Below, piece after piece: positions 5,327-50,870 of a DNA stretch of 64,000 bases. A program made the translations under genes and the position numbers. The notes under the pieces were generated by a model. The model searched no databases. It saw only the letters and a program-made list of their open reading frames with translations, and was not told the origin of the DNA. How positions within the stretch are numbered: the stretch's first letter is position 1; every line of letters starts with the position of its first letter. The stretch is from Yuukianura sp. NJ FZ-2021 (lineage: Eukaryota), in NCBI GenBank assembly GCA_046563655.1, contig CM102289.1, positions 2,232,001-2,296,000 of the forward strand, in the 5' to 3' direction.

Positions 5327-7771
5327 TCATTTGATTGACAGAAGTAGTGAAATTGTAAAGTCAATCATTTTGTAGTTAACAGTGGATACCATTTCACGGT
5401 CAACGCGATTCAACGGTCCAACTTTAACGAAGCATGGCAGCAAAGCCTTGACTCTTCTGCCGTCGACTTTAGTGTGCCTTCGATGCGTTTTCAAAATAAA
5501 AATATAGTCTGATGAAGATGTATAAACTTGAGCAGCTTGTAATACAAATATGTGCAGAACCCCATGCGAAAGCACTGCAGCAAACAGAAGAGCTGGTAGT
5601 AGAATTGACATGCCAGTGTTCAAAGCAACAGCATAAAAAATTACGCCGAGTGTACTGCCCGTGACAACACCAGAAGCGAAACTAAACACTACAAAGTCGT
5701 TAAAAATTTGAAGCAAAATGTACAAGTTGGAGTAGATTTGAGTGAGGTAGTTTGTACGCAATGCCAAACAATTCTGTTGTAGTTTTTCTTTGAGATGTTC
5801 TGCGGAGAACCAGAACAGCAAAGCATCGTTTAAAAAAATGACGAGCATTATTTGTGTAGAAAATTTGAGTGCACAACAAAATGTTATAAAGATCAAAGAC
5901 ATTGCTACAAAAATTGTGAGGCATCTAGCAGTTCCTTCGGTCCAATTGGTATCGACAGTCAAGCTGGTAATTGTCCCGAAATCAAGACCAACGTCACTTT
6001 TAAGTACAATTTCTAGCGTATACTGGATAATTCGTTCAGCGTCATCGAAGAACACAACGAGCATCATTGTTGTGAAAATTGGGCAACCAAAATACAATCC
6101 AAAGTGAAACATTTTCATGATACGGTAGCTGAAGGCTGATTCTGGTACACGCAGGTACCCTCCTAAAAACAATAAGTGTTAGCGTTTTTGCGCCTTTGAT
6201 TCATAATACAATATAATAAAGTATGCAGCCGTAGCAGGTCATAAGAGCTAAACCAAAAAGAGCTAATCCAATAAGAGCTACTCAATAAGAGCTAAAAAAA
6301 ATAAGAGCTACTCCAATAAGGGCTACTTCAATAAGAGCTACTTTCAATAAGAGCTACTTTCAATAAGAGCTAAAAAAATAAGAGCTAATTCAATAAGAGC
6401 TACTCCAATAAGAGCTACTTTTAATAAGAGCTAAGAAAAATAAGAGCTACTTTCAGAAAGGGCTCATTTCAAAAACACATTATCAAAAACGGAAATTTTT
6501 CAAGAAAATTGAAACCAGCCAAACTTTTTGGAAAACTTGAATGCGTTTAATTAATTGCTGGCAGGTACCCCAATCCAAAATGCGCGTAAAAAGTACAGGG
6601 ATTTTGAAAAGCGGCTGTCCAAAATCGTGGAAGAATACGACCACAACTCCGTTTCGGACTTTTTGCTGGGGATTTCGCTTAACGTTAAATTCCAGATTTA
6701 AAACTTTTAGATTAGAGGGTAACTTAAAATTTCATACAAACTCGGACAAAAATATTAAACTTAAAATGTTAGGTTAAAAACTTAGGTTAAAACACTGCTA
6801 AAAGATTCTTGTTTTGTTATTTCTACTTTTGTTAGTACATCAATTGAAAGTAGGTTAACTATGCCATATTTGTTTTAGTTACATAACAATTTAGAGGTCA
6901 AGTTGCATCCTTGCATCGTTAAATGGCGAATTAAATTCTTTTTCAGAAATTTTGATCAAGATGTGCTTCGGCTATTAAACGCATTCAAGTTTTCCAAGAA
7001 GTTTTGCTGGTTTCAATTTTCTTGAATCGTTTTTAATAATGTGTTTTTGAAATGAGCCCTTTCTGAAAGTAGCTCTTATTTTTTTTAGCTCTTATTAAAA
7101 GTAGCTCTTACTGGATTAGCTCTTTTTGGTTTAGCTCTTATGACGTGGAACCGTATGCAGCTACTAATATACCACATGTTCGTATATAAAGATAAATAGT
7201 ATATATTCATGTCTATAGCAACATACTATTCATTAGTTACCTAGTTTCTCGCCAGTTACAAACGACATGGCAGTATTTAGTAATTGTAGTAAATAGTATT
7301 TCCCGAATATGCAGGAACTGATGTCCAATGTCATACTATGGATGAGAATGCAACTGCAGCCAAATAGCAGAACCGAAAAGATAGTGCTTGATATTGAGAA
7401 AATACTGTTCAGATATGCCAAGGTCATACACATTATGATAGTCAGAACGTCAACCCCTAGCAGACCTGCGGTGACTATACTCCGGAATTTTGATGTTGAC
7501 AAAACAAACCGATTTTGCAAACGATTCCAACCGACAGGAATTTGATACAAGTTGTAAGCATTATTGATTGATGTCAGTAGCAGCCCAACGGCTGGGTTTT
7601 CATTAGGTTCTACGTTTTGTTCCAATTAAAAAAAAGTTTTGATGAAATTTACGAAAAATTTAAATTAGAAATTCTAGAAGTGCTGAACTTACCCTCTTTT
7701 CTGGAGAAGTTTTGTTTCTCAAATAAACGGCAACAAATGTAATGCCAAAACAGGTAAATTTTATGCAGCAT
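5327..7771 (-). CDS. Divergent gustatory-receptor-like 7TM chemoreceptor, paralogue A; exons 7771-7693, 7609-7241, 6162-5327; 427 aa
   Basis: Multiple hydrophobic helices. C-terminus KVGPLNRVDREMVSTVNYKMIDFTISLLL resembles the TM7 region of arthropod GR/OR proteins. Phase-1 junctions keep frame (1284 nt). Confidence 0.75.
6229..7152. mobile_element. 924 bp non-autonomous DNA element in the GR-A intron; asymmetric ends and subterminal inverted arrays of AAGAGCTA
   Basis: 8 bp direct repeat GTATGCAG at 6221-6228 and 7153-7160. Ends CCGTAGCAGGTC and GACGTGGAACC. Inverted arms at about 6237-6552 and 6974-7145. Confidence 0.85.
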
Positions 7772-10204: not shown

Positions 10205-11781
10205 TCATTGGATTGAGAGAAGAAGAGTAATTGTAAACTCCATTATTTTGTAGTTGACGGTGAGTACCATTTGACGGTCAACGCGATTCAATGAGCCAAC
10301 TTTAACAAAGCATGGCAGCAAAGCCTTGACCCTCCTGCCGTTTGCCTTACTGTACCATCCATTTGTCTTCAAAATAAATTTATACTCTAACGATGACGTA
10401 TAGATTTGAGCAGCTTGTAACATAAGTATGTGCAGAATCCCATGCGCATGAATTGCAATAACTAAGGCTGCCGGTAACAGAATTGACATACCGGTATTTA
10501 AAGCAACGGCGTAAAAAATGACGCCAAGTGTACTGCACGTGACAACCACCGAAACGAAACTAAACTCTACAAAATCATTAAAAATCTGAATCAAAATGTA
10601 CATGTTGGAGTAGATTTGAGGCAGGTAGGTTGTACCCAGTCTCAGACAATTCTGTTCTAGTTTTTCCTTGAGATAATCTGGAGACAGCCAGAATAGCATA
10701 GCATCATTTAAAAAAATGACGAGAATTACTAGACTAGAAAAACTCAGTGCACAACAAAATGTTTGAAATATCATGGAGACTGCGAAAAAAATCGTAAGAC
10801 ATCTAGCAGCGCCTTCGGTCCAGTTTGTACCTACAGTGAAACCTATGATTTTCCCCAAATCAATACCAATGTCACTCTTGAGTAGAATTTGCAGCATATA
10901 CTGGATTAGTTGTTCAACGTCATGAAAGACCGCAACGAGCACGAGTGTTGTGAAGATGGGGCTTCCAATATATAATCCAAAATGAAACATTTTCATGATA
11001 CGCAAGCTGAACGCTGAATCTGGTACACTCAGGTAACCTCCTGGAAAGTTATTAAGCGTTTTGCATTAGGTTCCATATGATGTGGTCAGAAAGTGAAAAG
11101 ATCAAAACTGAAATGATCAGAAAAAACGGTCAGAAACAGAAGGACAGTAGCCACACCGAACCTGAAATCTTTTGAATTCTGAGGTTTTCACTTCTGATCA
11201 AATATTTCTGACCATGTCAAATGGTACTGTATAGGCCAGTTACCTAGTTTCTCGCCAGTTACAAAAGACATAGCTGTATTTAGTATTTGTAGCAAATAGT
11301 ATTTCCCTAATACTAAGGAACTCATGTCCAGTACCATACTATGGGTGATCACACAGCCGCCGCCAAATAGCAGTACGGTAAAGATAGTGTTTTATTTCAA
11401 AAATACTGTTCCCATATGCCAAGGTCATCCAAATTATGATAGTCAACGCGTCAACACCTAGCAGACATGCGGTGACTACAGTCCGGAATTTAGATGTGGA
11501 CAAAACAAACCGATTTTGCAAACGATTCCAACCGACGGGGAATTGATAAAAGTTGTAAGAATTATTGATTGATGTTAGTAGAAGCGCGACTGCTGGGTTT
11601 GTATTGGTTTCCTTCTTTTGTTCTATTTCAAAAATAAAACAAAATGTAATGAAATTTAAGAAAAATTTGAACTAGAAATAGAGGTACGGAACTTACTAAT
11701 TCTTTTTTTCCTGGAAAAGTTGTGCTTCGCAAATAGACGGAAGCAACTATGATTGCAAAAAGAGTAAACTCTATGAAACAT
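10205..11781 (-). pseudogene. GR-like paralogue B with a frameshift in exon 2; exons 11781-11697, 11622-11244, 11040-10205
   Basis: Exon 2 is 379 nt versus 381 nt in paralogue D. The frame slips near 11390 in a homopolymer tract (NSIFEI then out of frame). The rest is intact, so an assembly indel is possible. Confidence 0.65.
11069..11229. mobile_element. Diverged ~160 bp MITE in the GR-B intron; same family as 51825-51986 and 61206-61352
   Basis: GGTTCCATATGATGTGGTCAGAAAGTGAAAAGATCAAAA...TTCACTTCTGATCAAATATTTCTGACCAT aligns with the copy at 51825. Confidence 0.75.
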
Positions 11782-15052: not shown

Positions 15053-16372
15053 TCATTTGATTGAAAGAAGAAGAGTAATTGTAAAGTCCATCATTTTGTA
15101 ATTGACGGTGGACACCATTTCACGATCAATGCGATTCCACGGTCCAACTTTGATGCAGCATGGCAGCAAAGCCTTGAGCTTTCTGGTGCCGGATTTAGTG
15201 TACCTTCTATTCGTTTTCAAAATATGAATATAGTGTAAGGAGGCTGTATAGACCTGTGCAGCTTGTAACACAAATATGTGCACAACCCCATGTGCAAGAA
15301 TTGCAGCAAACAGAAGAGCCGGTAGCAGAAGCGACATACCAGTATTTAAAGCAACAGCATAGAAAATCACGCCTAGTGCGCTGCCGATGACAATCACAGA
15401 AGCGAAAATAGGCCATACAAAGTCATTAAAAATCTGAAGCAAAATGTAAATGTTGGAGTACAGTTCAGTTAGGTATTTTTTACCTAAACAACTCAAACAA
15501 TTCTGTCGTAGATTTTCCTTGAGGAGTTCTGGGGACAACCAGAACAGCATGGCATCATTTAGAAAAATGACAAGCAATATAAGCGTAGAAAATTTGAGAG
15601 CACAGCAAAATGTTTGAAACATCGTGAAGATTGCTACAAAAATTATAAGGCATCTAGCAGTGACTTCGGTCAAATTCGTATTGATGTTCAACCCTACAAT
15701 TGTAGCGAAATCAAGACCAAGGACCATTTTGAGTTCAGTTTCCATGGTATATCGGACTAGTTGTTCGGCGTCATCGAAGAATACAACGAGCATGATTGTT
15801 GTGAAAATTGGGCAACCAAAGTATGATCCAAAGTGAAACATTTTCATGATACGCAAGCTAAACGCTGAATCTGCTACACGCAGGTAACCTCCTACAAACA
15901 ACAATTAGGAACGTCTTTGCGTCATTGATCTATAATATAATATAGTTAATATTATTATACTATTTCATCCATACGCTAGTTACTTACCTAGTTTCTCACC
16001 AGTTACAAACGACATGGCAGAATTTAGTAATTGTAGTAAATAGTATTTCCCGTATATGCAGGAACTCATGCCCAGTACCATACCATGGATAAGTATGCAG
16101 CCGCAGCCAAAGAGCAGCACCGTGAAAATAGTGCTTGGTATGGCGAAAATACTGTTCAGATATGCCAAGCTCATGCACATTATGATAGTCAACACGTCAA
16201 TACATAACAGACCTGCGGTGACTATACTCCGGAATTTAGATGTTGACAAAAGAAACCGATTTTGCAAAGGATTCCAAACGACAGGGATTTGATAAAAGTT
16301 GTAAGAATTATTAATTGATGTTAGCAGAAGCCCAACTGCCGGGTTTGTATTAGTTTCTTTATGTTGTTCCAT
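15053..16372 (-). CDS. GR-like paralogue C; exons 16372-15988 and 15891-15053; 407 aa
   Basis: Intact ATG, phase-1 junction in frame (1224 nt), high similarity to paralogues A, B, D and E. Confidence 0.8.
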
Positions 16373-17137: not shown

Positions 17138-18644
17138 TCATTTGATTGATAGAAGAAGAGTAATTGTAAAGTCCACCATTTTGTAGTTGACGGTAGACAC
17201 CATGTGACGGTCAACGCGATACAACGGGCCAATTTTAACAAAGCATGGCAGCAAAGCCTTGACCCTCCTGCTGTTCTCTTTACCGTGCCTACCATTTGTT
17301 CTCAAAATAAAAATGTAGCCTTTTGAAGACGTAAAGACTTGAGCCGCTTTTAACACAAATATGTTCAAACCCCCATGTGCAAGAATTGCAGTAAGCATGA
17401 GTGCCGGTAGCAGAATCGACAAACCAGTACTTAAAGCAACAGCATACAAAATGACACCAAGTGTACTGCTCATGACAACTGCAGTAGCAAAAATAAGCAT
17501 TATATAGTCACTAAAAAGGTGAAACAAAATATATACGTTGGAATAGACTTGAATGAAATTGGTTGTTTCCAAGCCCGAACAATTCTGTTGTAGGTTTTCC
17601 CTGAGACGTTTTGGAGACAACCAGAAAAGCATAGCTTCTTTTAAAAAAATGTCGAGGATTACTTCTGTAGAAAACTTGAGGGCAACACAAAAGGTTTGAA
17701 ACAACATGCAGATTGATGCAAAAATCATAAGGCATCTAGCAGTGCCTCCGGTCCAATTGCTATCGACGATCAAACCGGCAGTTGTATCGAAATCCGGACC
17801 AACGAAACTTTCCAGTACAATTTCCAGTGTATGTTGAATAAGTCGTTCAGCGTCATTGAAAAACACCACGATCATGATTCCTGTGAAAATTGGGCCACAA
17901 AAATGGAATCCAAAATGAAACATTTTCATGAAACCCAAGCTGAACGCTGACTCTGGTACACGCATGTAACCTACACAAAAAATATAAAACGTTTTTGCAT
18001 CATTGATTCATATTATAATATAAGAGTATGTATTGAATAATATACCGAATGTTCGTACATAAAGATAAATATACTATGCCAGTAGTTCTGTATATGCAAC
18101 TTACCTAGTGTGTCGCCAGTTACAAAAGACATAGCTGCATTTAATGTTTGTAGTAAATAGTTTTTTCCGAATATGCATGAACTCAAATCCAGCACTGTAC
18201 AATGGATGAGAATACAGCCGCAGCCGAATACCAGTACCGTAAATATAGTGCTTGAAACTGCGAAAATACTGTTCAGATATGCCATGCTCATACAAAATAT
18301 GATACTCAAAACGTCAAAACACAGCAGACTTGCTGTAACTATTCTCCGGAATTTAGACGTTGATATATCAAACCGATTTTGCAAGCCATTCCAGTAGACA
18401 GGGATTTGGTAAAAGTTGTAAGAGTTATTAACTGATTTTAGTAGAAACGCAACTGCTGAGTTCTTATTAGGTTGTTTCTTTTGTTCTGTTTCAAAAATAA
18501 AAAAAACAATGAAATTTTCAAAAAATTTGAATTGAAAATACTAGAAGTAATGAACTTACTAATTCTCTTTCTCCTGGAAAACCTGTGTTTTGCAAATACA
18601 TGGAAACAAATACGATGCCAAAAGGAGTAAAGTTTATGAAACAT
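17138..18644 (-). CDS. GR-like paralogue D; exons 18644-18560, 18485-18105, 17970-17138; 432 aa
   Basis: Canonical GTAAG/CAG junctions, all phase 1, total 1299 nt. A further in-frame ATG lies at 18668. Confidence 0.8.
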
Positions 18645-21929: not shown

Positions 21930-24900
21930 ATGAGGTCGTCAGCGTCTCTGGTACTCGTCTACTTGGCCCATACCGTGCTAACTACAATACATCAAGCAAA
22001 TGGAACCAACGTTACCGTAACTAACGTTACGGAAGAAAAAGTTGGCAGAGGAATTCTGTTTCCGCAGGATTCCGAATCCCGCGAACTCAAATCCCTTGAC
22101 GGAATCTGGAACTTCCGACTCGCCCCGAAGAACAAGCCGGACTTAGGATTCAGTGAGCGCTGGTTCAAACGGAAGCTAGACGAGGTGGAAAAATTTCAAA
22201 TTAACTTAAAAGCTATATGTTAGGTGTAGGCGTGTAAATCCGGATTTTTGAATCAAAATCCGTCGAAATCCGAAAATCGGATTTCTAAAAAGCGATGGCG
22301 AATTTCCACTCAAAAACTGTAGTTTTTGCCTTAAAAAAGGCTTAAAAATACTAGAAATTTTCACTCTTTGCAATTTTAGACTGGTGACGTGGAGTTGATG
22401 CCAGTTCCAAGTAGTTACAATGATGTTACGCAGAGCAAGTTGATTCGAGATCATGTCGGCTGGGTGTGGTACGACAGACAATTTTGGATCCCTAAAGAAT
22501 GGATGAAGCGACGCCGAATTTTTTTGCGTTTTGGTGGAGTTAACTATCATGCTATTGTGGTGGGTAACTCCAAAGGTTTTAAGATTCAAAAATCCTGAAA
22601 TTTTGAAATTAACTTTTTCCAACTAGATTTTTTGAATTTGCAGTGGATCAATGGCGTCAAAGTTGTTGAGCACAGCGGAGGTCATTTGCCATTTCTGGTG
22701 GAACTGACCGCGTCTGCACCGCCGGCAAAACTTCATTTCAATTCGTCAAATCGTATCTCCGTCGCAATAAACAATACGCTCAGTGCTGACACTGTTCCGC
22801 AAGGCTCAATTTATCGTCCCACCGATGACAGGTTGCATTTTCACAAAAAAAATCAAAAAGTGATTTTTTTTTTTCAAAATTTTTAAATTTTTTTGTTTTG
22901 AATTTTTCAATTTTGAAGGTATCCCGAAGGCTACTTTACTATGAAGTACAATTTTGACTTTTTCAACTATGCCGGAATACATCGTTCCGTGTACATCTAT
23001 TCTACACCACTCATTTACATTGACGACATCACCGTTACAACAAAAACTAACGACACGACAGGTAACGTCAAGAATCAAAATTTACTTTTGACTTTGAAAA
23101 TTTGAAATTTTTTGAAAATTTTCAGGTATTGTTGACTACTCTGTAACATCTTACACATCCAGCAACGGATCATCTCTCGTTAAGTCTACCTCAGATGTGA
23201 AAGTTACACTGGAAGACAAACATGGAAATATCGTAGCTACTGGAGCTGGTGAAAGCGGGAATTTTCAATTACCAAATGCCAGTTTCTGGTGGCCATTCAC
23301 AATGGTCCAGAAGGACAAAGATGCTGGATACTTGTACACTCTCGTGGTTCGTAACTAATTTCAAAGTTCATAATTTCGGAATTATTAAATTCGAAACTGA
23401 AAATTTTGTATTTTTTTTTGTAGGTAAAACTTGTAGATAGCACCTTGGGATCTGAAGATGTGTACAGACTGAAAGTCGGAATTCGGTCAATCACGTGGAC
23501 AAACACTTCGTTCTTAATAAATGGAAAACCATTTTACTTTCGCGGGTTCGGACGTCATGAGGATTTCGATGTAAATCGCAAGCTTTTAAATGAATTTGGG
23601 CTTCTTAGAAAAAAAAAGTCTGCGTAACACTGACAAAATTTTGAATCAATTTTTGGCAATAGATACGCGGAAAAGGAATCGACAACGTAATGCTCGTAAA
23701 AGATCATAACTTGGTCAAATGGACTGGAGCCAATTCATACCGAACTTCGTAAATGCCATTGTTTTCAGTTTTTTTTTTAAATTTCAAAACTAAATTGCAA
23801 AAAGTTTTAAAAAATTGAATTTTTCGTATTTTTGCTTAGGCATTATCCGTATTCTGAGGAAATCTTGGATTTGACTGATCGTCTTGGAATTGTTATCATT
23901 GACGAGTGTCCAGCAGTTAGTTTGAATGGATTTGGATCAAAGTTACTGGAAAATCACAAGCAATCTGTCCGAGAAATGATTCAACGTGACAAGAATCGGC
24001 CGAGCGTTGTGATGTGGTCGGTCGGAAACGAACCACAGTCACAACAGGCCGCAGCCGAGAATTACTTCAAGTAAGTTTCGAAATTTTAGTTATATTTGAG
24101 AATTTGGCTTGTTAAAGTTATGAAAAGCTTAGTTTTTAAAAAAAGATACAAAATTGTGCTGTTTAGTTCAGGGAAGTAGTTGAGTTGACCAGAACTCTGG
24201 ACACTAATCGACCTGTGACACTGGTGACAAACCAGTGGTGGAGCGATGACAAAGTAGTAAGTCACTGACCTTTGACCTTGAGTGTTTTACTTTTCAGTGA
24301 AGTTGTGACCTTGGCTCGAACGAGTGACCCCACCAGGCCAATAACAATCGTCTTAGCACAGGACTTCGATCGTGATGTCACTGTAAATGCTTACACTTTG
24401 TTGCACTAATCAATGGTTACGGTTTGCTTTTACCTTTGCTTATAACCGAGTAGATTTACAATTTTAAAATCAATTCTCCCGCCATTTTTTTTTTTAAATT
24501 GAACTTATAATTTGTTTAGGCAAAGTTTCTGGACATCATTTGCATCAACCGTTACTTCAGTTGGTACTCGGATGCAGGTCACACAGAGGTCATCACGAAA
24601 TCGCTGATTCAAGATGTCCAAAATTGGGTGTCCCATTTTCATCGACCAATCGTTGTGGCTGAGTACGGAGCAGACACGGTCGCTGGACTGCATAGAGTAT
24701 AAACATGTATTTAAAAACTTAAGACAAAAGGAATTTTTGTTTTGAAATTTGAGCCTTTTATATTGAAATTTTAGAATCCTGATGTTATGTTTACCGAAGA
24801 ATACCAGGTGACGCTCATGAGAGAGCATTTCAAAGCATTTGATTTCCTTCGCCAAAATACGAGTTTTATTGGAGAACATATTTGGAACTTCGCGGACTTC

Positions 24901-25139
24901 ATGACGGAACAAGGTATTCATTTTAAAAAAGTTATATTTTCAAGAAATATCTGTTTAACTTTAAAAATTGAACAGGAACTACCCGAGTTGTTGGAAATCG
25001 TAAAGGAATTTTCACTAGAGATAGGCAGCCCAAGGCGTCTGCGCACTACCTCCGCGTTCGATATCATCTACTGGCACAACAATCCGATGACTATCCGCTC
25101 CCAGAAGACTTGAATTATGAACTACCCATTTATGGATGA
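21930..25139 (+). CDS. GUSB: Beta-glucuronidase (glycoside hydrolase family 2), about 12 exons, with signal peptide
   Basis: [56 protein letters not shown] (acid/base Glu), AEYGADT (nucleophile Glu), [20 protein letters not shown]. Confidence 0.95.
24266..24278. promoter_or_regulatory. Perfect DR1-type nuclear-receptor element TGACCTtTGACCT just inside a GUSB intron
   Basis: Exact match to the AGGTCAnAGGTCA consensus on the minus strand. Function not shown. Confidence 0.3.
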
Positions 25140-25648: not shown

Positions 25649-27615
25649 ATGCAGTCAACACTGCATAAAATTCTCGTCGTAGGCGGTGGAGCTGGAGGAC
25701 TCGAATTAGCAACCCATTTAGGACGGAAGCTCGGATTCAAACGACTAGCTCGTCCAGTACTTCTAGATTCATCCAGCACTCACATTTGGAAACCACTGGT
25801 TTGTGATCTCATAGCTATGATCCTAGTAGTAGGAAACATTGAGCATATACCAAAGTAATGATGAAGATAAACGAGAAACGAATCGAGTGGATCAAAACGA
25901 ATTCTAGCGGATTCGTTTGGTGAAATTCGAGAGAGGAGTAACTTCCTGCCCATGCTTTCTACCGTTCGTTAGTCTAATGCAAATGTCGAACATAACTAAA
26001 CTAGTAACCTGTAACACTTTGACTAATTAAATGCAATGGGTATGAATTTATGTTTAACTGGGATCCTAGTTATGAAGTAATGTTTCTTGCCTTCTAGCTT
26101 CATGAAGTTGCGACAGGTAAGACAGACAGCTTTGAAGTTGATGTTAAAGTTACTTAATATAATGTGTTTTTCAGGTGCTCTTAATACCGGGGAAGATTCT
26201 TTGAATTATTTTGCGCATGGACACAAGAACGGTATGCATTCACCTAAACCTAGTGACTTAGAAGTGGAAGCAGCAGTTTATTTGAACTTTTGTTTTTAGG
26301 TTATGAGTTCCAGTTGGGACGGATGTATGGCTTAGACAGGGAGAAGAAGCAGATAAAAGTAGCTGCAATCCTTGGTGACGAAGGAGAAGTCATCATAAAA
26401 GAACGTGCCATCAACTATGATTCGTTGGTGTTAGCTGTTGGGGCAGTCACAAATGACTTCGGTGTTCCCGGGGTAAACAATTGCCTGTTTCTGAATACCC
26501 CAGAAGATGCAGAGTTCCTACGGAAAAAAATCCTCCTTCGTGCTTTTCAAGTTGTCACCGGTAACTCGGCTACACCACGATTACGAATAGGAATTGTAGG
26601 AGCAGGAGCAACTGTAAGAAAATCGCTCTAATTTTTTATGTTTCGGCGATATTTTTTATATTGACGTTTTGGTATTCTTCCTTTTTGAGGGTGTTGAACT
26701 AGCTGCAGAAATTCACCATACCGTCACAGAACTACGAAACTACGGCGCAAATTTGTTTCCAGATCAACTCCAAATTGTTATAATGGAAAGTGGCAAACGT
26801 ATTCTTAGTGGTGGTCCAGAATCTTTGTCCAAGTTTGCAACGGATGAATTACTTGCAAGAGGAATAGAAATCCGAACGGAATGTCCGATTCGTGCAATCA
26901 AGAAGGAAGGCTTTGTCCTTGGCGGTGATAAATTGTTGCCTCTGGATATAATGGTTTGGACTGCTGGAATCAAATGCCCTGATTGGCTCTCCAAGATTGG
27001 ACTATCAGTGAATAACCTCAATCAAATCAAAGTCAACGAACATTTGCAGACTCTAGAGGATCCAAATATTTTGGCGCTTGGTGACTGTTCATACTGTCCA
27101 GATATTACAAATCCTGGGAAGTATTTGAGTTCCACAGCTCAGGTAATTGCAAAAAACTAAAAATATTACAAACATCTTACTAAGTTATGATCGAAACCTA
27201 ATCGCTGAATTTTTGATATTTTTTTCCCAAGGTGGCTCACCAACAAGCGGAATGGTTAGCAAAAAAGCTCCAAGCTCGTCTGAGAAACTCTGCAGTGGAA
27301 CCATTCAAGTTTGAACCCAAAGGAATGCTGGTGTCTCTAGGTGAATCCAGCGCAGTAGGAAGCTTGGCGGCGATAGTTGGACCCAAAAGGAACTATCACG
27401 GTTAGATTTTCAATTGAACAATAAAATGGAAATACTCGCCAATATTTTGAATTGATCATTTGAATATTCCAGTTGAGGGTCGAGGCGCCAAGTTACTATA
27501 CTCGTCATTGTATCGAATGCATCAAGCTGTTCTTTACGGCTGGACGACAGCGGCTATTCTGTGGATGGGTGATAAGCTCAGACGAGTTGCCCTGCCACAA
27601 CTAAAATTGCACTAG
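25649..27615 (+). CDS. ndh: Type II NADH:quinone oxidoreductase, proteobacterial Ndh type; exons 25649-25798, 26098-26116, 26175-26231, 26300-26613, 26690-27142, 27232-27400, 27473-27615; 434 aa
   Basis: KILVVGGGAGGLELATHLGRKLG, HIWKPLLHEVATG, NDFGVPGV, IVGAGATGVELAAE, WTAGI, ALGDC, AQVAHQQA, SLYRMHQ, and C-terminal PQLKLH. Collinear with E. coli Ndh as recalled. Six GT-AG introns; exons sum to 1305 nt. Confidence 0.93.
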
Positions 27616-27747: not shown

Positions 27748-30474
27748 CTACGTTTTCTTTCCTCTGTTTCGTGGCTTCTTCTTAGTAGGTTTCTCCGTCT
27801 TCTTATCATTTTGTGCTGTATTTTCTGCGCTCACTGTGCCGTTTAAGTCATCGTTACCGTCGCCAAGGTTTTTGTCGTCACTGACATCACTCTTGTCCTT
27901 CGGTTCATTTGAAACTTCCGGGGATTGGCGATCGTCCTGAGTTCGGTTAAGTTCGTTGAGTGCGTCATGGTTTTGAGGTAATATTTTATTCGCTTCAGCG
28001 TTTTCTTCAACTTTCTCTTCTGGCGTTTCCTCTACTTCAGTTACTTTTTGCGTTTCCTCAGTTTCATTTGCTCCTGGGGTTTCTTCCGCTTCATTCACAT
28101 GTGGCATTTTCTCTACTTCTGGCGTTTCCTTAACTTCTTCTGCTTCTGCCGTTTCCTCAGTTTCTTTGATTTCTGGCGTTTCTTCCATCTCATTCACTGC
28201 TGGAGTAGCATTAACATCCTCTACTTCTATCGATTCCTCAGCTTCTACTTCTGTCGTTTCTTCAGCTTCTTTGATTTCCGGCGGTTCTTCCTCGTCATAC
28301 ACTTTTGGCGTTTCTGGCGTTTCCGCAGCTTCTCCTACTTCTGTCGTTTCCCCAATTTCCTTTGCTTGTGGCGTTTTCTCATCTTCCTTTACTTGTGGCG
28401 TTTCTTCCGTTTCATTCACTTCTGGCGTTTCCTCAGCTTGTACTTCTGGCGTTTCCTCAGCTTCTACTACTAGAGGAGTTTGCTCAATTTCCTTTGCTTC
28501 TGGCGTTTCCTCGGCTTCCTTTACTTCTGGCGTTTCTTCCACTTCATTCACTGCTGGAGTTGCCTTTACTTCCGCTACTTCTGTCGTTTCAGGTTCTTGT
28601 ACTTGTGGCGTTTCCTCCACTTCATTCACTTCTGGCGTTTCCTCAGCTTCTACTTCTGGCGTTTCCTCAGCTTCTACTACTAGTGGAGTTTGCTCGATTT
28701 CCTTTGCTTCTGGCGTTTCCTCGGCTTCTTTTGCGACTGGCGTTTCTTCAACTTCTTTTACTTCGGGAGTTGCTTGGACCTCGCTTACAACTTGAGCTGT
28801 CTTGGCCTCATTTTCGGGCGTTGTTTCGGTGTTGTCCGACATTTCAGAAACTTCGTGAGTCGGTTCAGCTTCCGATTCCTTCAACTCTTCTACCTCTGCG
28901 CAAGAATCCACATCTCCTCCTGCAGTTTCACTGCTCTGATTTGTTGCAGGAGCGTCATCCTCGTCGTTCGCTTTTTCCTCAACATCATCTTGCTTAGGTT
29001 CTGTTGAATCTTCACTAGTGTCATTCACTTCTTGTTTGGCATCACCTACTTCTACGCTCAGTAAACTTACTGCCAACGGTTGCGCAATGGCTTCATTGTC
29101 TCCGGAGGCAATCTCATTTTCAGCATTTTGTGAAGTGCATCCCTCGCTGGATACGACATTTCCCTCAGGCAGATCTCCATCTACTACGCCCTCTACTGGC
29201 GTTTCTGTTTCAAATCCTTTGGTTCCCACCAAAATTTTGAGTCGAGTGTCAACTGTGTCAGTGAAATAAGGTCCCTCCAAAGTGATCTAACAAAAATTTT
29301 CATAGATTAAAATTTTTGAAATTCAAAATTTTTTGGAATTCTAAATTTATAGCTTACCGCTAAATAGTAGTCAAGATCAATTATTCTGCAACCTCCCAAG
29401 CTAGTTGGAGGTACTCCGTCGGGAATCGCAAGTTCTGCGTCCATGTTTCGCGAATCGCTGGGCTCTATTCCATCTAAAGTAACCGTCTCAAGTACATTCG
29501 TTTCGATGCTCTTCAGAACTTGACTGGGAAGGTTCACAATGAATCCCACTTCCTTTAAAAAAATGAATTTTTTTTTTGAATTTCCAAAATTTTTGAAAAA
29601 ATTTCACAAGTTAAACAAAAAATGGATACCTGTACTAGGCTGACTTTGATTTGCTTTATAGATTTTTCACTTTCGTTTGAAACTGTTAGTGAAAACGGAA
29701 CAGCCTCTCCCACTGTATATCCAACCCGCGAAAGTTTCAATTCAACTCCAAAAGGTGAATCCCAAAACTGTCTTAATGCAACAAATTTAAAATCTCCCAT
29801 GCTACTTCTGTCTACTCGAACTTCTTGGTTGAATCGTTGCCCCCAGTCATTCAAATCCTCTCCTCCTTCAACTTTAAACGCAGTTTTAAATGTTTTCATC
29901 ATAGACCATGGGCGCTTGATTTCAATTTTCACAAAGTACTCCACTCCACCGTACAATCCAGAAAACGAACTCGGAATTTTTTTAGGAAGTGCTTGACTGA
30001 ACGGAATTGACCGGTCAGGTTCAACAAATTCCTCTGAAGAATTTTTGAAAAAAAAAATTTGTTTGCTTTTTGGTTGAAAAATTTCAAATTGACAAAATTG
30101 CAGAATCCGAGTTGTTTACCGGTGGTTATAAGACTTATTTGTTCATTGAAGTACGACTCGGTTTCGGAACGGTACAAAGATTTCCGGTACTTTGGTGTTG
30201 GATTGTCTGTCCATTGTGTACGACATCTTCCTACCCAGGTTAACTTGACGTCTGAAAAAATTTGAAAATTTAAGTAAAAATTTGAACTTAAAACTTACTT
30301 TTTGAACTTATAAAATGTTTTTAAGTGTAAAAGTCAAAATTTATGGCGTCATTCAATGGAAAACTCACTGGACACTTTTGTTGGCGTTTTGAAGTGAAAC
30401 AGAACCGAACCAGATACGGTTTCGCCAGGATGAAAACTCGGTTGATCGAAAAGTATTTCAACAGGAGCCGACAT
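27748..30474 (-). CDS. Alpha-arrestin (ARRDC-like) with long Glu/Thr/Pro repeat tail; exons 30474-30369, 30251-30120, 30033-29630, 29552-29358, 29286-27748; 791 aa
   Basis: FHPGETVSGSV, IPSSFSGLYGGVEYFVKIEIKRPW, GYTVGEAVPFSLTVSNES, IPDGVPPTSLGGCRIIDLDYYL. Exons sum to 2376 nt. Confidence 0.85.
28000..28790 (-). repeat. Coding tandem repeats (EETPEV-type units) with a higher-order ~210 bp duplication
   Basis: Recurrent TTCTGGCGTTTC. The block EIEQTPLVVEAEETPEV occurs twice, 210 bp apart. Confidence 0.9.
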
Positions 30475-35488: not shown

Positions 35489-38400
35489 ATGGAGCAAAAT
35501 AAAACAACTCATACAAACCCTGCAGTTGTGCTTCTTTTGACATCAATTAATAATGCTTACAACTTTTATCAAATTCCTGTCGGGTGGGATCCGTTGCAAA
35601 ATCGATTCGTTTTGTCCACATCTAAATCCTGGAGTAAAACTACCGCAGCTCTGCTAGGTATTGATGTGTTAACTATGGCGATGGGTATGAGCTTGGCATA
35701 TTTGAACAGTGTTTTCTCAATTTCAAGCACTATCTTCACCGTACTGATGTTCGGCGCCTCTTGTTTTAGTGTCCACAGTATTTCACTTGACATAAGTTCC
35801 TGTATATTCGGAAGATACTATATGTTGCAAATGCTAAATACAGCTATGTCTTTTCTAAGTGGTGAGAAGCTATGCTCCGTTTCAAAAATATATGCCACCT
35901 GTGTATTTCTCTGGTCCCCAGCTCCCAACGCCTCCCCCTCTAACTTTCACCAAATTTTGAACCAGGTTGGCGCGAAATATGTTGGTTTGTTTACATTTTT
36001 TCAAAACTTTGCTTACAGCTGATTCTCTTCAACTACACTTTTAAAAAGTTAACACTTTTAGTTTCGATTTCGTTAAGTTTTAATCTTTTTAAATCCAATT
36101 GCGAAAGACTAGTAGTTAGCAGTGGTGAGAAAAGTGTAGTGATGAGTGTATTAACACCGCCAAATCCTCCTCCAATACGTAAGATCAAGTCTCCAAACAT
36201 TAAATTGGCAGAGACTAAGTACATCCAAAACATCCATGAGTACTTGAAGTCTGTAAGAGAGAACACTGGCAAAGAAAATATTCCACTTGGATTCGTTACT
36301 CCAGGAAAAAAAAACGTAAGTAATACGTTGGATGTAAAACCAAATCCAATACTTCAATTCTGAATACGTCATATTTCGAAATTGAGTATGAATGTAAGAA
36401 ATCAATCCCTGTAATTTCAGATTCCTGAAATCATAGGGGAAATGGTCGGGATTTCCCAAAGAGCTGTGAGGAATCATTTAAAAAAAACAGATTTGGAACC
36501 AAGGAAACATAGAGGAAAGAAGACGAAGCAAGACGACATAGAAGATTTTGAAAAATGTGCCATACGCGATTTGATTTACACTAATGTTCATGAGGGTTAG
36601 GACAAGAAAATCACTTTTTACCTATACAATTCAAAAAATGGTTAAAAAAATTCTAATCTTCTGGTCAAGGTAAACCGAGATATTTTGCCAAACAACCCTA
36701 TTTCTCGCACTACGTTGTGGCGCGTTGTGCGTGAAATCGGTTTCAAATTCAAAAAATGTGAGGACAATCGTATTCGCTTAATGGAATCGAAAAGTGTGGT
36801 TAATCAGCGGATCCACTACCTCAAGTAATTCGTATTTCGTTAATACATTCAAAGAATTATGGAATAACTCAAATATTTTGAAGACTATTTACTCAAAATA
36901 TATATTAACAGACAGAAGAAACAATTTGAAGATGCTGGGGCTGAATTCGTGTTTCTGGATGAGACATGGATAAATAAGAATATACGTCCATCCCGGTCAT
37001 GGACTGATGATACGAAAAAATCGTTGCTTAACGTTAAACTTGAGAAAGGCCACCGCTTAATTGTAACGCATGCTGGAGGAGAAGAGGGATTTGTGGATGG
37101 CGCTGTTGATGTGTTTTTGTCAAACAGTGGCAAAGCTGACTATCATATTACAGAATAAATATTCATATTACATATCAGAATATTAAACAAGTTTTTTGGT
37201 AATTTTCGTGATGTTTTGCTTATTGTCACTACATTTCTACCCGACGCATGGTTTTACTTCCAAGTTGAGACAACTCACGTTCGAGAGAAAGTGAAAGCGT
37301 TGGGGGAATCCGTCAAGAGGAGAAGGCATATAGTTTTGAAACCAAGCATAGGTAAGTACGCTTTATCGTAACTACAAGGGACTATATTTACTAATGTATT
37401 TATTTTTATATACAAACATGGTGGTGTATTGTTTAAATTGAATTATTATATTTATATTAAATTATGAATCAATAATGTAAAAACGCTCAAAACGGTATGG
37501 CACAAACACCGTAAGAAAGTGTTGTAGGTGTGATCCGGCTGTGTTATACACTTCTTAGGATTGAACTGTAAGGTCTTGTGACAAAATTTTTAACTTCAAC
37601 GTGGTACAATGTGATACAGGTTTGAAAAGGCCCAAGGTTGCTATAGCGCCCATTTCTACAAATTTCTACAAGAGGTTTTGCCATAACTACGGTTTCAAAG
37701 AAATTGTTTGTTTTGAATTTTTTCTGCGATTCGTTGACCTCTCGCCATGTGAATCAAGTGGGATTCGTATGAAATTCGTACCAAAGTTGTTTTTTCTTGT
37801 TCTTTTTTTAAATCGGAGTTATGACATACCCTCTTACGCCATTTGTATAAATGGTTGCTATAGCAACCTTGAAAAGGCCTGAATCCCCTGATTCAGAAAC
37901 TGTATACATATGCTGCCATTTCCGACTTTTGGTTCAAAATATTTGGTGGAAACTACAAGGTATCGTCGCTTGGCATGTAATAACTTTTGAACTAAATGCC
38001 AGCAATAGCCAGAAATACATATAATTTCTAAATCGGAGGATCATGGGCTATTCAATGCTTATCATTTGCATGGGGTCGCCATAGGTCAATGTGATGACCT
38101 TTGACATCAAATTCGTCGTGTACTTGTTGTCACACTAAGTTGAAAATTTAGTCAGATGACATACCAATCCTAATAACTGATACGAAAAATTCAAATCGCA
38201 CCGACAATAGTTTCTTACGAGATTTGTTCCATGCCCTTTTTGGTTTTAGGAGGATGTCTGCGCGTATCAGATTCAGCATTCAGCTTGCGTATTATGAAAC
38301 TGTTTCATTACGGAATATACTATGGTGGACCAATATTTACAACAATTACTATTGCTCTCTTTTTCCATGACGTTGAACGAATTATCGTGAACACTCTGGA

Positions 38401-39085
38401 AACGGTACTCAAAAGTAACTTTGGTCTTGAGTGCGTCAGAAATACCGGTTGGACCGGGACCGTCGATACCGAATGGACTGGAGTTACTGCTAGATGCATA
38501 ACAATTGTTGCAGCAATCGTCACGATCACTCAAGCATTTTGTGTTATCGTCAAATTTCATACAATAGTACTTGTCGTCATTTTCCTAAATAATGCTTTGA
38601 TAGCCTGGTTGTCTCCAGAACTTCTCAAGAAAAAACTTCAACAGAATTATTTGACTACAAACTGCCTAACTCAAATCTACTCCAACGTGTACATTTTGCT
38701 TAACCTTTTTAATGACTATATAATGCTTATTTTTGCTTCTGTGGTTGTCATGGGCAGTGCTCTTGGCGTAATTTTCTATGCTGTTGCTTTAAATACCGGT
38801 ATGTCAATTCTGCTACCGGCTCTCTTGGTTGTTGCAATTATTGCGCATGGGGTTGTGCACATATTTGTGTTACAAGCTGCTCAAGTCTATACGTCCTCAT
38901 TAGACTACATTTTTCTTTTGAAAACGAATCAAAGGAACAGTGAAGCCGACGACAGAAGGGTCAAGGCTTTGCTGCCATGCTGCGTCAAAGTTGGACCCTG
39001 GAATCGCGTGGACCGTGAAATGGTGTCCACCGTCAATTACAAGATTATGGACTTTACAATTTCACTGGTTCTGTCATTCAAATGA
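35489..39085 (+). CDS. GR-like paralogue E; probable exons 35489-35861 and 38250-39085 (402 aa) across a 2.4 kb transposon-filled intron
   Basis: Both parts are open and paralogous to A-D. The ancestral donor (CTAG|GTAA) is missing. A phase-1 G|GTGAGA donor at 35862 would restore frame. Confidence 0.6.
35872..37160 (+). mobile_element. Truncated, intron-containing IS630/Tc1-mariner transposase remnant (possibly Sailor/DD82E type)
   Basis: Fragments SRTTLWRVVREIGFKFKK and FVFLDETWINKN...KGHRLIVTHAGGEEGFV...DYH. The reading stops before the second catalytic Asp. No second TIR found. Confidence 0.75.
37633..37871. mobile_element. 239 bp MITE with 8 bp TSD (P-element or hAT type)
   Basis: AAAAGGCC|CAAGGTTGCTATAGC...GCTATAGCAACCTTG|AAAAGGCC. 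Confidence 0.85.
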
Positions 39086-47355: not shown

Positions 47356-48325
47356 GGTTTGGCTAAGAATATTTGTAAACACTTTTCTAACATGCACCGA
47401 AAAACGAATGATATGAGCATGAAGATTTCACTTACACAAATTAAAAATTGGTATTCAAAAAATTCAACCTAACAAACACTTTCTGAACCTACCGACACAC
47501 TAATTTTGATTTTGCAAATAACACATTTACAACTTGATTTTGCACAGAACACACCGATACAATACTATGCTATTGTGAAATTAGTACGATGAAATTACTG
47601 CGAAATAATTGCAGTATCTTGCCAACCAAATATTTTTTTGTTGTAATGTAAGCCGGAAGAATTAGGTTTAAATTAATCCCAAAATTATGCCAAAAATCAG
47701 TTACGCTGAATTTTTATATCAAAATAGAATTTTAAACATATTAAAAACACAACAAACTTAAGTCAGTGAAAAAATTACTTCGTTAAACCAGTATTTTTCT
47801 TATTTAGAAGGACTTTTAAGTGTTTAAAAAATGAAAGCACGTCATTCTTCATACCGTTAAGTTTTTTCATAAAAGGCGCTTTGTCATGCTCGTGTAAAGT
47901 TTGTACTTCATGACTTTTTCATTACTTCGTGTCAAAACAGCTTCACTACATTCATAACTTTACAACACGATATACGGAACAGACTAAATCCGCAATACTT
48001 GCTTTTCGCCTTGATTCGTGTTTAAATTCGTAGAAACTCCTTTTTCCATGGACGTCAAAGCTACAAGAAATAATATGAGAACATATTTAATAAACTTCTT
48101 CAGTTTCTAAGCCAAGTCGAAAAGTCGAATTTGACAAAACACGCCAATACAAAGACATGAGTTTAATCAGTCTTAAAGCTTTGGAGTTTTTTGAAAACGA
48201 TTCCTGTTGTGTTTTCAGCAATACTCTAAAAATATTTGAATCACTCGTAATTTCACTTTCACACTGCAAGGTAGGTACTAAATAGTTGGCATTATTTTCT
48301 GCAATAATTGGAAATCAACAACGCG

Positions 48326-50870
48326 ATGCGCAAAACAATGGTTCTTAAACTGATAGTATTAAGCAGTATGCTGTTATATCATTTTCATGTCAAATGTGAG
48401 ACGATTCGAATTTTCACCGAAATTGATGAATGTTTGAAAGATTTCGAACAGTATACAATTACGTTACTGTTTAAGTCATCAAGCACAATTATACCACAAA
48501 TAGCTGTTGCGCCCATTATGCTCTTTGATAGTTCAATTTTTGCTACTTCTGCGAGTTCTGGGCGCAGAAGGCGATCATTTTTTGACAATGTGCTGTTCTA
48601 CTACTTTCCCGATTTGATTCCGTATACTGCCAACCGTGTTGCGATATACGACGAAAATCTGAATTCTGGAGAACATTTCTATACAGTTTTTGTGACAAAA
48701 ACTGCTGCACACGTTGATCGACTTCAAATTTTTCAATGGTCAGATAGGCCTCTGTCAAGGGTGTTCCTTGTGTTTGAAGTAAGTTTACTTCAAATTGAAC
48801 ACGAATTGGAAATTTACTTTTTGGAAACCGTAGTCGGTACAGTACAAACTATTGACATGAACAAGCTAGAGTTAAGGATTTTGCGTTTGCAAAATATGCC
48901 GAACTGTTCGCGAATTTCAAATTTCAGTTGTCGTAAACAACTCCATCACGACAAAACACCATACCCGCTCCGACATGGCTTCTTTGTAATAAATGGAGCA
49001 GATTGGGGTGCAAATGCAAAAGGAGACTCGTCGTATCTTTTCATTAACCGAGCTGTCCAGAATCATAGTCGTTTTCACAGCGCTAAAAATTTGATTTCGC
49101 GGTACTTGAAAAATCCTTTTGCAAAGTATTTTTCGAAGCAAATAAAGAACGAATTGCTGGTGATTACAGTTTTGTCGCTTGAGTGGTTTGATATTTGGTT
49201 CTACGATTATGGCTCAAGCATAGCTGAAAAGAGTCAAGATAGATTGGGAATAAGTCTTGCGCATTTTGCTAGGCAATTCCTACTTCTAGATGAAACTGGA
49301 TTTGTAGTTAATAAATATAATATTAGTACACAATTTATAATTACAGGTGACGAGTACATGAATTTTCTTACATGCGATGGAGTTCACCAGCCACTAGCTT
49401 TTGAAATTTACATTAATCCATATGACAAGTACTCTTGGATATTCTTTTTTGTTGTGATTCTTATTGTACTACCAGTTACTATATTAATCATAGTAGTATT
49501 TACTTTTGAAGATGACACTGTGCAGATAAAAAGTTTGACACGCATCTTGTTCGATACTGTTAGTTTTACTGTTTCAGTTGATCTGGAAATCGGTCCCTCT
49601 GATGTTAATCAGCTCACAAAATTTCCTACAATACAACGGAAAACTGTGTTTATACTGGGTATTTGGACGCTACTTTCAGTTGTACTGGTCAATGCATACA
49701 AAGGTGTTGTAACCTCTGATCTAGTAGCAGATAGCCCAATCACCGGCAAGTATTCCAGGGTCTCACAGACGGAGAGTTTCGAATTTTATTCCGCCCAAAA
49801 ATTTACGTCCAAATTGAAATCTTGGGCAAAATCTGGAGATGCAGAAGCCATTGGTTACAAAGTACTAGACGCGAGTATTCTCCACGGTTGTTTGTGCTAC
49901 CCTGACATTCCTGTACTTGCGGGACAGCTTTGTAAGAGTTTACTTTTTCGAGAGTCGTCGGATTCTTTGGGCGAACGGTGTGACAAAGCCTTTAGCTTAT
50001 TAAAGGAAATGAACATCAGTGCATATCCGACTCCAACTGCCGAGTTCTGTACGTTTCAACTCGCAACGCAAGATGTGGAAGCAGCAGCACAGTTTTACAG
50101 GAAACGCAAACGACTTGACCTCAAAGACGTCAAGAAATTTAAGTTCCACGGCGACTTTTGTCACATAATTCAAGCCATCAGTAAAACTAATCACACAATT
50201 CGTAGTAGTATCACCCTTTCCAATTACAACTAGCGCTTACCAAATACAAAAAGCAACATCTCACTACTACTATAAAGACACAAAAGAAATGGAAAGGCTA
50301 CTTAGCATTATTTCCAGTTGTAACAAGACGGCCTACATTGACTCCGATGTTAGCCTGGAGTACATATTATTAGCTGCAAAGAATCTATCTAAAATACGAT
50401 ACAAAATTGCTGAAGAACGGTTGTTTTACAAATGGAAAGGGCTTTCGATACGTGTCAATAGTGTGGTAAAAATATACCAGTACAAAAGGCTACTACATCT
50501 CATGGCGCATGGGATTTACCACATTTGGGAAAAGTGGCGCCAAATGTTGTCGCCTTCAGATGAAGAACAAGTTGTAACACGGGCTGTAAAATCGCGTGCG
50601 AATGTGGAAGTTAATAAGTTGACAGTGGAAACACAGGGATTGAAAACAATTTTTATCGTTTGTTCTTTAAGTATCAGTTGCTGTATTGTACTTTTAGCAA
50701 TTGAAATGGTCGTAGGATACTTAAGCAATATAACAAATTTCTTTTATTCTGTTGTACTTCGGCTGGAAATATTTAGAAACAGTTTTCTGAAATGTACCAA
50801 AGAGCGAACAACGAACATGAAGCCTCCAAAATTAAAAATCGTTGTTCCAAAAATTCGAAGTTGGAAATAA
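48326..50870 (+). pseudogene. IR-like 3 with a single 2 nt deletion near 50211
   Basis: AGTATCACCC versus ATTTCACC in paralogues. ORFs 48308-50233 and 50289-50870 are consecutive parts of one gene. An assembly error is possible. Confidence 0.7.

Follow-up and report, generated by a model that had tools for sequence, protein, structure and literature searches.

A bacterial-type NDH-2 gene with six introns in a springtail-type genome, probably acquired by an old horizontal transfer

Type II NADH dehydrogenase (NDH-2) occurs in some animals, and the NDX enzyme of Ciona has been expressed in flies, according to the available text of one article (PMC7056681). The same text describes alternative respiratory enzymes as missing from insects, and another article places their loss on the lineage that led to arthropods (PMC5496232). 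In the springtail Folsomia candida, 809 foreign genes have been counted, 330 of which are shared with O. cincta, as given in the open portion of that report (PMC5490193). The domain layout of NDH-2 and its membrane-anchoring amphipathic helices at the C-terminus are described in the accessible sections of a preprint (bioRxiv 10.1101/2025.10.14.682086). Here, we analyze a stretch of 64,000 nucleotides of the Yuukianura sp. NJ FZ-2021 genome (contig CM102289.1, positions 2,232,001 to 2,296,000; hereafter the window, in whose own numbering all positions are given), which carries on its + strand a spliced gene for an NDH-2. We consider it probable, at about 0.8, that the gene is intact and nuclear, encodes a bacterial NDH-2 of the E. 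coli Ndh type, was acquired horizontally by an ancestor of springtail-type hexapods from a betaproteobacterial (Neisseriales-like) donor, and has since gained introns and been kept by purifying selection.

Joining the candidate exons by script gives a gene of seven exons and 1305 nt, that is, 434 codons followed by TAG.

25649-25798, + strand: exon 1, 150 nt, encoding aa 1-50; carries the start codon and first GxGxxG (FAD-binding Rossmann), without an N-terminal extension
25799-26097, + strand: intron 1, 299 nt, GT..AG, phase 0
26098-26116, + strand: exon 2, a microexon of 19 nt that codes for a portion of the most conserved motif in the N-terminal region
26117-26174, + strand: intron 2, 58 nt, GT..AG, phase 1
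26175-26231, + strand: exon 3, 57 nt
26232-26299, + strand: intron 3, 68 nt, GT..AG, phase 1
26300-26613, + strand: exon 4, 314 nt; remaining FAD domain and start of the second GxGxxG (NADH-binding Rossmann); Pfam PF07992 at 37.1 bits
26614-26689, + strand: intron 4, 76 nt, GT..AG, phase 0; interrupts the second GxGxxG
26690-27142, + strand: exon 5, 453 nt, encoding 151 aa; NADH-binding domain, the invariant Glu that ends the second strand, GD motif and first two residues of AQxAxQ; PF07992 at 65 bits
27143-27231, + strand: intron 5, 89 nt, GT..AG, phase 0; interrupts the AQxAxQ motif of the putative quinone site
27232-27400, + strand: exon 6, 169 nt; remaining quinone-site motif and C-terminal beta sheet
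27401-27472, + strand: intron 6, 72 nt, GT..AG, phase 1
27473-27615, + strand: exon 7, 143 nt including TAG; two C-terminal helices that are predicted to be amphipathic and presumed to anchor the protein to the membrane

The GC content of the introns is 26-37%, compared with 45% in the exons and 37% in the whole window, and reading from the ATG without splicing meets a stop at codon 70. The junctions sit within motifs that are highly conserved in the family, among them the second GxGxxG and AQxAxQ. At all six of them the protein aligns without gaps to each of the eight homologues examined (five bacterial, three springtail-type), and the 19-nt microexon, which lies between the 299-nt and the 58-nt introns, is required for the gapless alignment to all eight. 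Judged by these alignments, such agreement at six junctions is far beyond chance. A tblastn search found no second NDH-2 copy in the window.

The spliced protein contains both GxGxxG Rossmann motifs, one for FAD and one for NADH, in columns that are invariant in A1, an alignment of 14 family sequences which we chose from the matches to exon 5 and the springtail orthologues. The AQxAxQ motif is kept as A330, Q331, A333 and Q335, all in invariant columns, and we take it to be the quinone site. E213, an acidic residue that follows strand 2 of the NADH domain and presumably sets the preference for NADH over NADPH, also occupies an invariant column. The protein ends in the ...KLH C-terminus. Altogether, it retains 70 of the 71 invariant columns of A1 and all 30 near-invariant ones, and the sole departure is a change from G to D at residue 260. 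The initial annotation had joined seven exons in frame into a protein of 434 aa with both GxGxxG folds, AQxAxQ and a KLH-type C-terminus. We confirm this model with its six GT..AG introns and gapless junctions, and every one of the motifs is present in the spliced product.

For the window protein, searches of Pfam, NCBIfam and the PDB were made exon by exon, and the structural steps were made on relatives. The Pfam cut-off of Pyr_redox_2 (PF07992; 26.1) is passed by exons 4 and 5, with the scores listed above; exon 1 stays below the cut-off, and exons 6 and 7 have no Pfam match. Exon 5 alone matches the solved NDH-2 of C. thermarum (4nwz) at 6.7e-09. When the A1 profile was compared with the PDB, it matched the NDH-2 of S. 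aureus (5na1, 1e-64), B. subtilis YjlD (3e-59), 4nwz (2e-58), a mycobacterial NDH-2 (6e-52), yeast Ndi1 (2e-45), P. falciparum NDH2 (2e-43) and FSP1 (3e-23). The AlphaFold model of P0005, a relative with 65% identity to the window protein, has a mean predicted local distance difference test score (pLDDT) of 81.8 and a predicted template modelling score (pTM) of 0.81, and it superposes on solved NDH-2 structures with template modelling (TM) scores of 0.81-0.84. This model ends in two helices (residues 392-410 and 412-428) at pLDDT 31-70, and the hydrophobic moment of the window protein is high around residues 386-396 and 410-416. Because the invariant and near-invariant columns are kept and the profile and fold match, the window protein is, as far as sequence can tell, a member of the NDH-2 family. 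Its product would be a single-subunit flavoprotein whose first Rossmann domain binds FAD and whose second binds NADH. A pair of electrons would move from NADH through FAD to a quinone of the membrane, docked at the AQxAxQ site, and no protons would be pumped. The two C-terminal amphipathic helices are predicted to fix the enzyme to the membrane surface.

With exon 5 as query, a word-based search of longer proteins gave 20 matches, to which the spliced protein was then aligned at full length by blastp. The closest full-length relative is P0005 with 64.8% identity, followed by P0004 (60.7%), isoform X2 of Folsomia candida (58.9% over 372 aa), the proteins of Chitinolyticbacter (58.0%) and Jeongeupia (57.4%), and gammaproteobacterial Ndh (40-42%). 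Folsomia candida is the only named eukaryote among the 20 matches, and in a profile search Orchesella dallaii (P0027) is the only one among the best 120 of 8000 candidates. Within the same best 120, proteins of Chitinibacteraceae and Chromobacterium are 55-61% identical to P0005, Pseudomonas proteins 45-47%, and the respiratory Ndh of Providencia and Pectobacterium 41-42%. The Folsomia orthologue is annotated as 'NADH dehydrogenase', with isoforms X1 (XP_021967012.1 / OXA38030.1) and X2 (XP_035701150.1), and that of Orchesella as an unnamed protein.

We built a quick tree of 49 rows, consisting of the window protein and 48 of approximately 140 proteins (all springtail-type ones, all named Neisseriales and a sample of the rest). 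We also built a careful maximum-likelihood tree of 32 rows, from which P0002, P0006, P0017-P0020, P0030, P0041, P0043, P0045, P0050, P0060, P0079, P0090, P0098, P0118 and P0128 were left out. In the quick tree, the window protein is sister to 11 springtail-type rows with a support of 99 in the Shimodaira-Hasegawa-like approximate likelihood ratio test (SH-aLRT), and together they lie inside a 30-row clade with Neisseriales (SH-aLRT 100). The careful tree places the window protein as sister to the springtail clade at 100/99 (bootstrap/SH-aLRT) and both within the Neisseriales clade at 100/100. Pseudomonas, Enterobacterales, Alphaproteobacteria and other Gammaproteobacteria stand on the opposite side of both trees. 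We also forced the window protein to group with the bacterial rows and away from the other springtail rows, a group that was chosen after the tree was seen; the approximately unbiased (AU) test rejects this arrangement (delta lnL 24.7, p-AU 0.001).

The base composition of the gene matches that of the host. The window coding sequence has a GC content of 45.5% and a third-position GC (GC3) of 38.5%, versus 60.6% and 64.5% GC in the contigs of two bacterial relatives. A scan of metagenomes with P0005 found three loci, of which only L001, the contig of P0005 itself, is springtail-type; L002 and L003 are GC-rich bacterial contigs. L001 carries an uninterrupted coding sequence with AT-rich flanks (GC 35%) and an AATAAA near its 3' end, and its overall appearance is that of a spliced eukaryotic mRNA recovered from an environmental sample. 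Between the coding sequences of the window and L001, the proportion of synonymous differences (pS) is 0.79, which is saturated, and that of nonsynonymous differences (pN) is 0.25 over 434 codons. Given the saturated pS, the pN of 0.25 and the host-like composition, the gene appears to be old, host-adapted and constrained.

These comparisons point to an old, single and functional horizontal transfer. The donor would have been a betaproteobacterium close to present Neisseriales such as Chitinibacteraceae and Chromobacterium, and the recipient an ancestor of the springtail-type hexapods. The simplest history would be a single transfer before the window lineage split from that of Folsomia and Orchesella, after which the gene would have taken on the base composition of its host, gained spliceosomal introns and remained under purifying selection. 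In terms of sequence, transfer and domestication are well supported. It had been proposed beforehand that the gene is a proteobacterial Ndh-type NDH-2 and an old horizontal acquisition. The first point agrees with the 57-58% identity to bacterial proteins, with the motifs and with the trees, where bacterial Ndh and the spliced protein nest together as given above. The second is supported by the trees, the animal neighbours, the introns, the host-like composition and the conserved catalytic motifs.

Comparison with the relatives suggests how the introns arose. Gene calls of P0025, P0022, P0003 and P0004/P0021 stop, start or carry an in-frame insert of 24 residues near window residue 155, and the C-terminal ~275 residues of these relatives are continuous. 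The window gene has no intron near residue 155 and has three introns in its C-terminal part. This pattern suggests a conserved intron near residue 155 on the Folsomia and Orchesella side that is missing in the window lineage. If the breaks in the relatives are indeed introns, the positions are not shared, and the introns would therefore have been gained independently after the transfer. We conclude that the introns were probably gained after the transfer. The gene may thus offer a clean case of intron entry into a bacterial gene that originally had none, with sites that apparently differ between lineages.

The NDH-2 gene is physically linked on one sequence to two further genes, at distances of ~510 bp and 132 bp.

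22380-25139, + strand: upstream neighbour, multi-exon GH2 beta-glucuronidase-like gene; Pfam GH2_N and GH2_C on four open reading frames (ORFs)
27748-30115, - strand: downstream convergent neighbour, arrestin-domain gene; Arrestin_N and Arrestin_C on ORFs at 29310-30115

The N and C domains of GH2 (sugar-binding and TIM-barrel) fall on several + strand ORFs at 22380-24699, and the stop of this gene lies ~510 bp before the ATG of the NDH-2 gene. For one GH2 exon, the top PDB match is human beta-glucuronidase (1bhg, 5.5e-21), and bacterial beta-glucuronidase is nearly equal. The arrestin gene has its stop at 27748-27750, leaving 132 bp between the two stops. The Pfam domains and ORF coordinates thus confirm the placement between a GUSB-like and an arrestin gene that was first described. 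The Pfam scan covered 129 of the 148 long reading frames at 14-40 kb; the remaining 19, which were dropped, either overlap the NDH-2 gene or run antisense to the arrestin tail. Searched exhaustively, the arrestin exon matches 575 representatives at E <= 0.001; the top E-value is 2.6e-20, and these relatives are distant, with identities of 22-48%. A word-based search with the same exon gave no match at E <= 1e-5. The ten best representatives examined are all from animals, namely three nematode species (Caenorhabditis auriculariae, C. bovis and Diploscapter), five insects (Trypoxylus, Ephemera, Daktulosphaira, Anabrus and Cochliomyia), the springtail Allacma fusca and the annelid Owenia. The nearest atlas clusters of the exon are Eukaryota, most commonly Arthropoda. 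On these matches, the flanks of the NDH-2 gene are animal and probably arthropod.

The arrestin gene has an unusual appendage for an arrestin-domain protein. Its tail at 27751-29286 (-) comprises 512 codons rich in Glu, Thr and Pro in near-regular repeats, and three stretches of it match the Pfam family 'CTD', the nonapeptide repeat of Spt5, at 7.8e-11. The repeat tail gives rise to a strong GC and AT skew at 28001-30000.

Further away, we notice several other groups of reading frames. At 41580-63666, downstream of the NDH-2 gene, seven long intronless reading frames of 614-865 codons lie on both strands, and a 233-codon piece at 50169-50867 continues the frame at 48308-50230. Identity is 70-77% among the five + strand copies and 93% between the two - strand copies. 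Four of these frames, spanning at least 798 codons, match no Pfam family at E <= 1e-4, and one copy has a weak match to Lig_chan (E 3e-4, below the cut-off). The array is probably a tandem set of divergent ionotropic-receptor-like genes. Five paralogous frames of ~283 codons, at 5330-6178 (-), 10208-11065 (-), 15056-15904 (-), 17141-18007 (-) and 38177-39082 (+), flank the block of GH2, NDH-2 and arrestin genes on both sides. They are 59-74% identical to each other and match no Pfam family at E <= 0.001, nor any at E <= 1 in the one copy that was rescanned. At 3249-4592 (-), an uninterrupted frame of 448 codons carries FMO-like (1.6e-24) and Pyr_redox_3 domains. This intronless flavin monooxygenase frame in an intron-rich region could be another foreign gene.

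Three other origins of the NDH-2 gene have to be weighed against the transfer. Bacterial contamination or a chimeric join in the assembly would fit the fact that the nearest non-animal relatives are common soil and water bacteria. However, six spliceosomal introns break conserved motifs of the gene, its GC3 of 38.5% is far from the 60-65% GC of the bacterial relatives' contigs, and the two animal genes lie so close to it on the same sequence. The orthologues, moreover, stand on contigs of 743,784 nt in Folsomia and 3,024,870 nt in Orchesella dallaii. Introns and composition effectively refute an artefact, to which we give almost no weight. On the other hand, the gene could be a surviving member of an ancestral metazoan NDH-2 (NDX) family that most arthropods have lost. 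NDH-2 does exist in some animal phyla (Matus-Ortega et al. 2011, as cited in the available text of PMC7056681), and our trees contain no metazoan NDX-type sequence. Against such vertical inheritance, the identity to Neisseriales proteins is 55-61% and the nesting with them has a support of 100/100, and springtails are the only named eukaryotes among the 20 exon-5 matches and the best 120 of the 8000 profile candidates. For the Orchesella orthologue, each of the ten closest atlas clusters shown consists entirely (100%) of Bacteria, which we treat as a lead only. The solved eukaryotic mitochondrial NDH-2s also score lower against the A1 profile (2e-45 and 2e-43) than the Firmicutes NDH-2 (1e-64). 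We reject a vertical origin on the nesting and on the eukaryotes named among the listed matches, and consider it very improbable. A transferred gene that is silent or decaying in the window lineage would explain why the terminal branch of the window protein, at 0.43, is the longest in its clade, where most others measure 0.07-0.21. But the frame of 434 codons is open over seven exons with canonical splice sites throughout, 70 of the 71 invariant residues remain, and pN is much lower than pS. On these grounds we reject a pseudogene, and silence or decay of the window copy seems improbable to us.

Several points nevertheless weigh against the horizontal transfer as we have drawn it. The six junctions, including the 19-nt microexon, have homology as their only support, and NCBIfam gave no equivalog above its cut-off when single exons were scanned. 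The structural model is that of P0005 and not of the window protein. The trees were built without Ciona NDX-type metazoan, fungal or plant NDH-2, and because of this the exclusion of a vertical origin is indirect. Their root is a midpoint only, and the label 'springtail-type' derives from the NDH-2 tree itself. The branches within the Neisseriales-type clade are open polytomies in both trees, so the donor is not narrowed further. The intron positions of the relatives come from read-through gene calls at the protein level, not from their DNA. Among the ten arrestin relatives, the highest identity belongs to Allacma fusca (37%), but this protein ranks fifth by E-value, after nematode and insect proteins.

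The analysis shows the structure of the gene, its integration, its bacterial affinity and conservation, and the NDH-2 fold of P0005. We infer the catalysis, the expression of the window copy and its membrane of residence, and the N-terminus bears on the last of these. The first Rossmann motif is preceded by 11 residues in all six full-length springtail-type proteins (the window protein and five relatives) and by 7-15 residues in 18 of 18 Neisseriales-type proteins. The two groups also differ little in how many basic and acidic residues their first 40 positions contain. Upstream of the ATG, an in-frame stop lies 5 codons away in the window and 11 codons away in L001. By these N-terminal lengths and upstream stops, no N-terminal mitochondrial presequence is found in any of the six full-length springtail-type proteins.

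As first proposed for this gene, the enzyme could serve as a mitochondrial, rotenone-insensitive and non-pumping entry for NADH, and it may pair with a horizontally acquired alternative oxidase (AOX) of springtails to bypass complexes I, III and IV. NDH-2 acts in this way in bacteria, fungi, plants and some animals, as stated in the available text of PMC7056681, and the accessible part of a preprint links an active, horizontally acquired springtail AOX to hypoxia tolerance (bioRxiv 10.64898/2026.06.01.729305). The catalytic motifs of the window protein are intact as well. The short N-terminus and the upstream stops speak against a matrix location, however. The available text of the AOX preprint contains none of the terms NDH, NDX, 'alternative NADH' or 'type II', and rotenone appears there only in the estimate of residual oxygen consumption, so that this text is silent on rotenone-insensitive NADH oxidation. 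We consider this role possible but unlikely. Because no N-terminal presequence has been gained, a bypass of complex I on the matrix side appears no more likely than action on a cytosol-facing membrane.

Alternatively, the enzyme may stay outside the matrix on a cytosol-facing membrane, where it would use NADH to keep ubiquinone or dietary quinones reduced. Its role would then be antioxidant or quinone-detoxifying, like that of FSP1/AIFM2, and not respiratory. The bacterial-length N-terminus has been kept through long purifying selection, the C-terminal amphipathic helices would need no import machinery, and FSP1 belongs to the same superfamily, with a match to the A1 profile at 3e-23 and a fold TM of 0.65. 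This reading stands only on a missing signal, and uncleaved or internal targeting signals would also fit the data. We regard it as a tentative candidate that falls short of an even chance. A cytosol-facing quinone reductase analogous to FSP1 nonetheless appears at least as likely as an alternative to complex I. Finally, we speculate that two unrelated transfers have built a complete non-pumping bypass in springtail-type hexapods, in which the betaproteobacterial NDH-2, located at the inner membrane without a classical presequence, would feed ubiquinone and an oomycete-derived AOX would drain it. Such an arrangement is doubtful at present. If true, it would enable soil animals to reoxidise NADH during hypoxia-reoxygenation or poisoning of complex I, and the lineage-specific introns would be a dated natural experiment in post-transfer intron gain.

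Full-text literature searches found no publication that links springtails with NDH-2. The Folsomia orthologue (OXA38030, 'NADH dehydrogenase') was not found in the readable part of the supplements of the F. candida genome paper, which does not include the file on the validation of horizontal gene transfer. The gene is thus apparently undescribed in the literature, although its orthologues are publicly annotated. The initial annotation proposed a bacterial-type NDH-2 domesticated in an animal genome. This does stand, but the novelty was overstated, because orthologues are annotated in Folsomia candida and Orchesella dallaii and the gene is not private to this animal. Since transfer into springtails is common, with the 809 foreign genes given for F. 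candida in the open portion of PMC5490193, and the orthologues are annotated, the gene adds a case and does not change the picture. Its interest is raised by the parallel case of AOX and by the pattern of intron gain. Our findings support the idea that a hexapod lineage holds an NDH-2 of separate, bacterial origin, conserved in at least three species-level lineages. Together with the springtail AOX, it poses the question of whether an alternative respiratory chain has been rebuilt from foreign parts, or whether a quinone reductase works outside mitochondria.

Among known bacterial systems, the closest to the window protein are the respiratory Ndh proteins of Proteobacteria, specifically the NAD(P)/FAD-dependent oxidoreductases of Chitinibacteraceae (Jeongeupia, Chitinolyticbacter, Chitinilyticum, Deefgea and Chitinibacter) and Chromobacterium. 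These proteins have 430-438 aa, against 434 in the window, and they share the same N-terminal start, both Rossmann motifs, AQxAxQ and the ...KLH C-terminus, forming one clade with it (100/100). A direct comparison of the window protein with two of the Chitinibacteraceae proteins gives 57-58% identity. Unlike bacterial Ndh, the window gene resides in an animal nucleus, with six introns, AT-rich third positions and animal neighbours. The orthologues of Folsomia candida and Orchesella dallaii form its sister clade (100/99), and the bacterial-type N- and C-termini are common to all of them. In contrast to the window gene, their read-through gene calls suggest an intron near residue 155 and none of the three C-terminal introns of the window.

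Yeast Ndi1, Plasmodium NDH2 and Ciona NDX have the same family and fold, and Ndi1 superposes on the P0005 model with a TM of 0.80-0.81. The eukaryotic mitochondrial NDH-2s are nevertheless far more distant, with 20-24% identity in structural alignments with that model. Ndi1 and NDX carry mitochondrial presequences, whereas the springtail-type proteins have none. FSP1/AIFM2, which acts in animals outside mitochondria as an NAD(P)H:CoQ oxidoreductase, is a far more distant member of the same superfamily (3e-23, TM 0.65), and the window protein is not in the FSP1 family. FSP1 attaches to membranes by N-myristoylation, which differs from the predicted anchor of the window protein; still, it shows that an NDH-2-like enzyme can act on non-mitochondrial membranes. 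The springtail AOX, in the accessible part of its description (Weaver 2026, bioRxiv 10.64898/2026.06.01.729305), is likewise a foreign gene for a non-pumping respiratory enzyme that sits among native genes and is inferred to be an ancestral acquisition. It differs in its donor, which is given there as an oomycete and for the window gene would be a betaproteobacterium, and it encodes another enzyme, which acts at another step of the chain.

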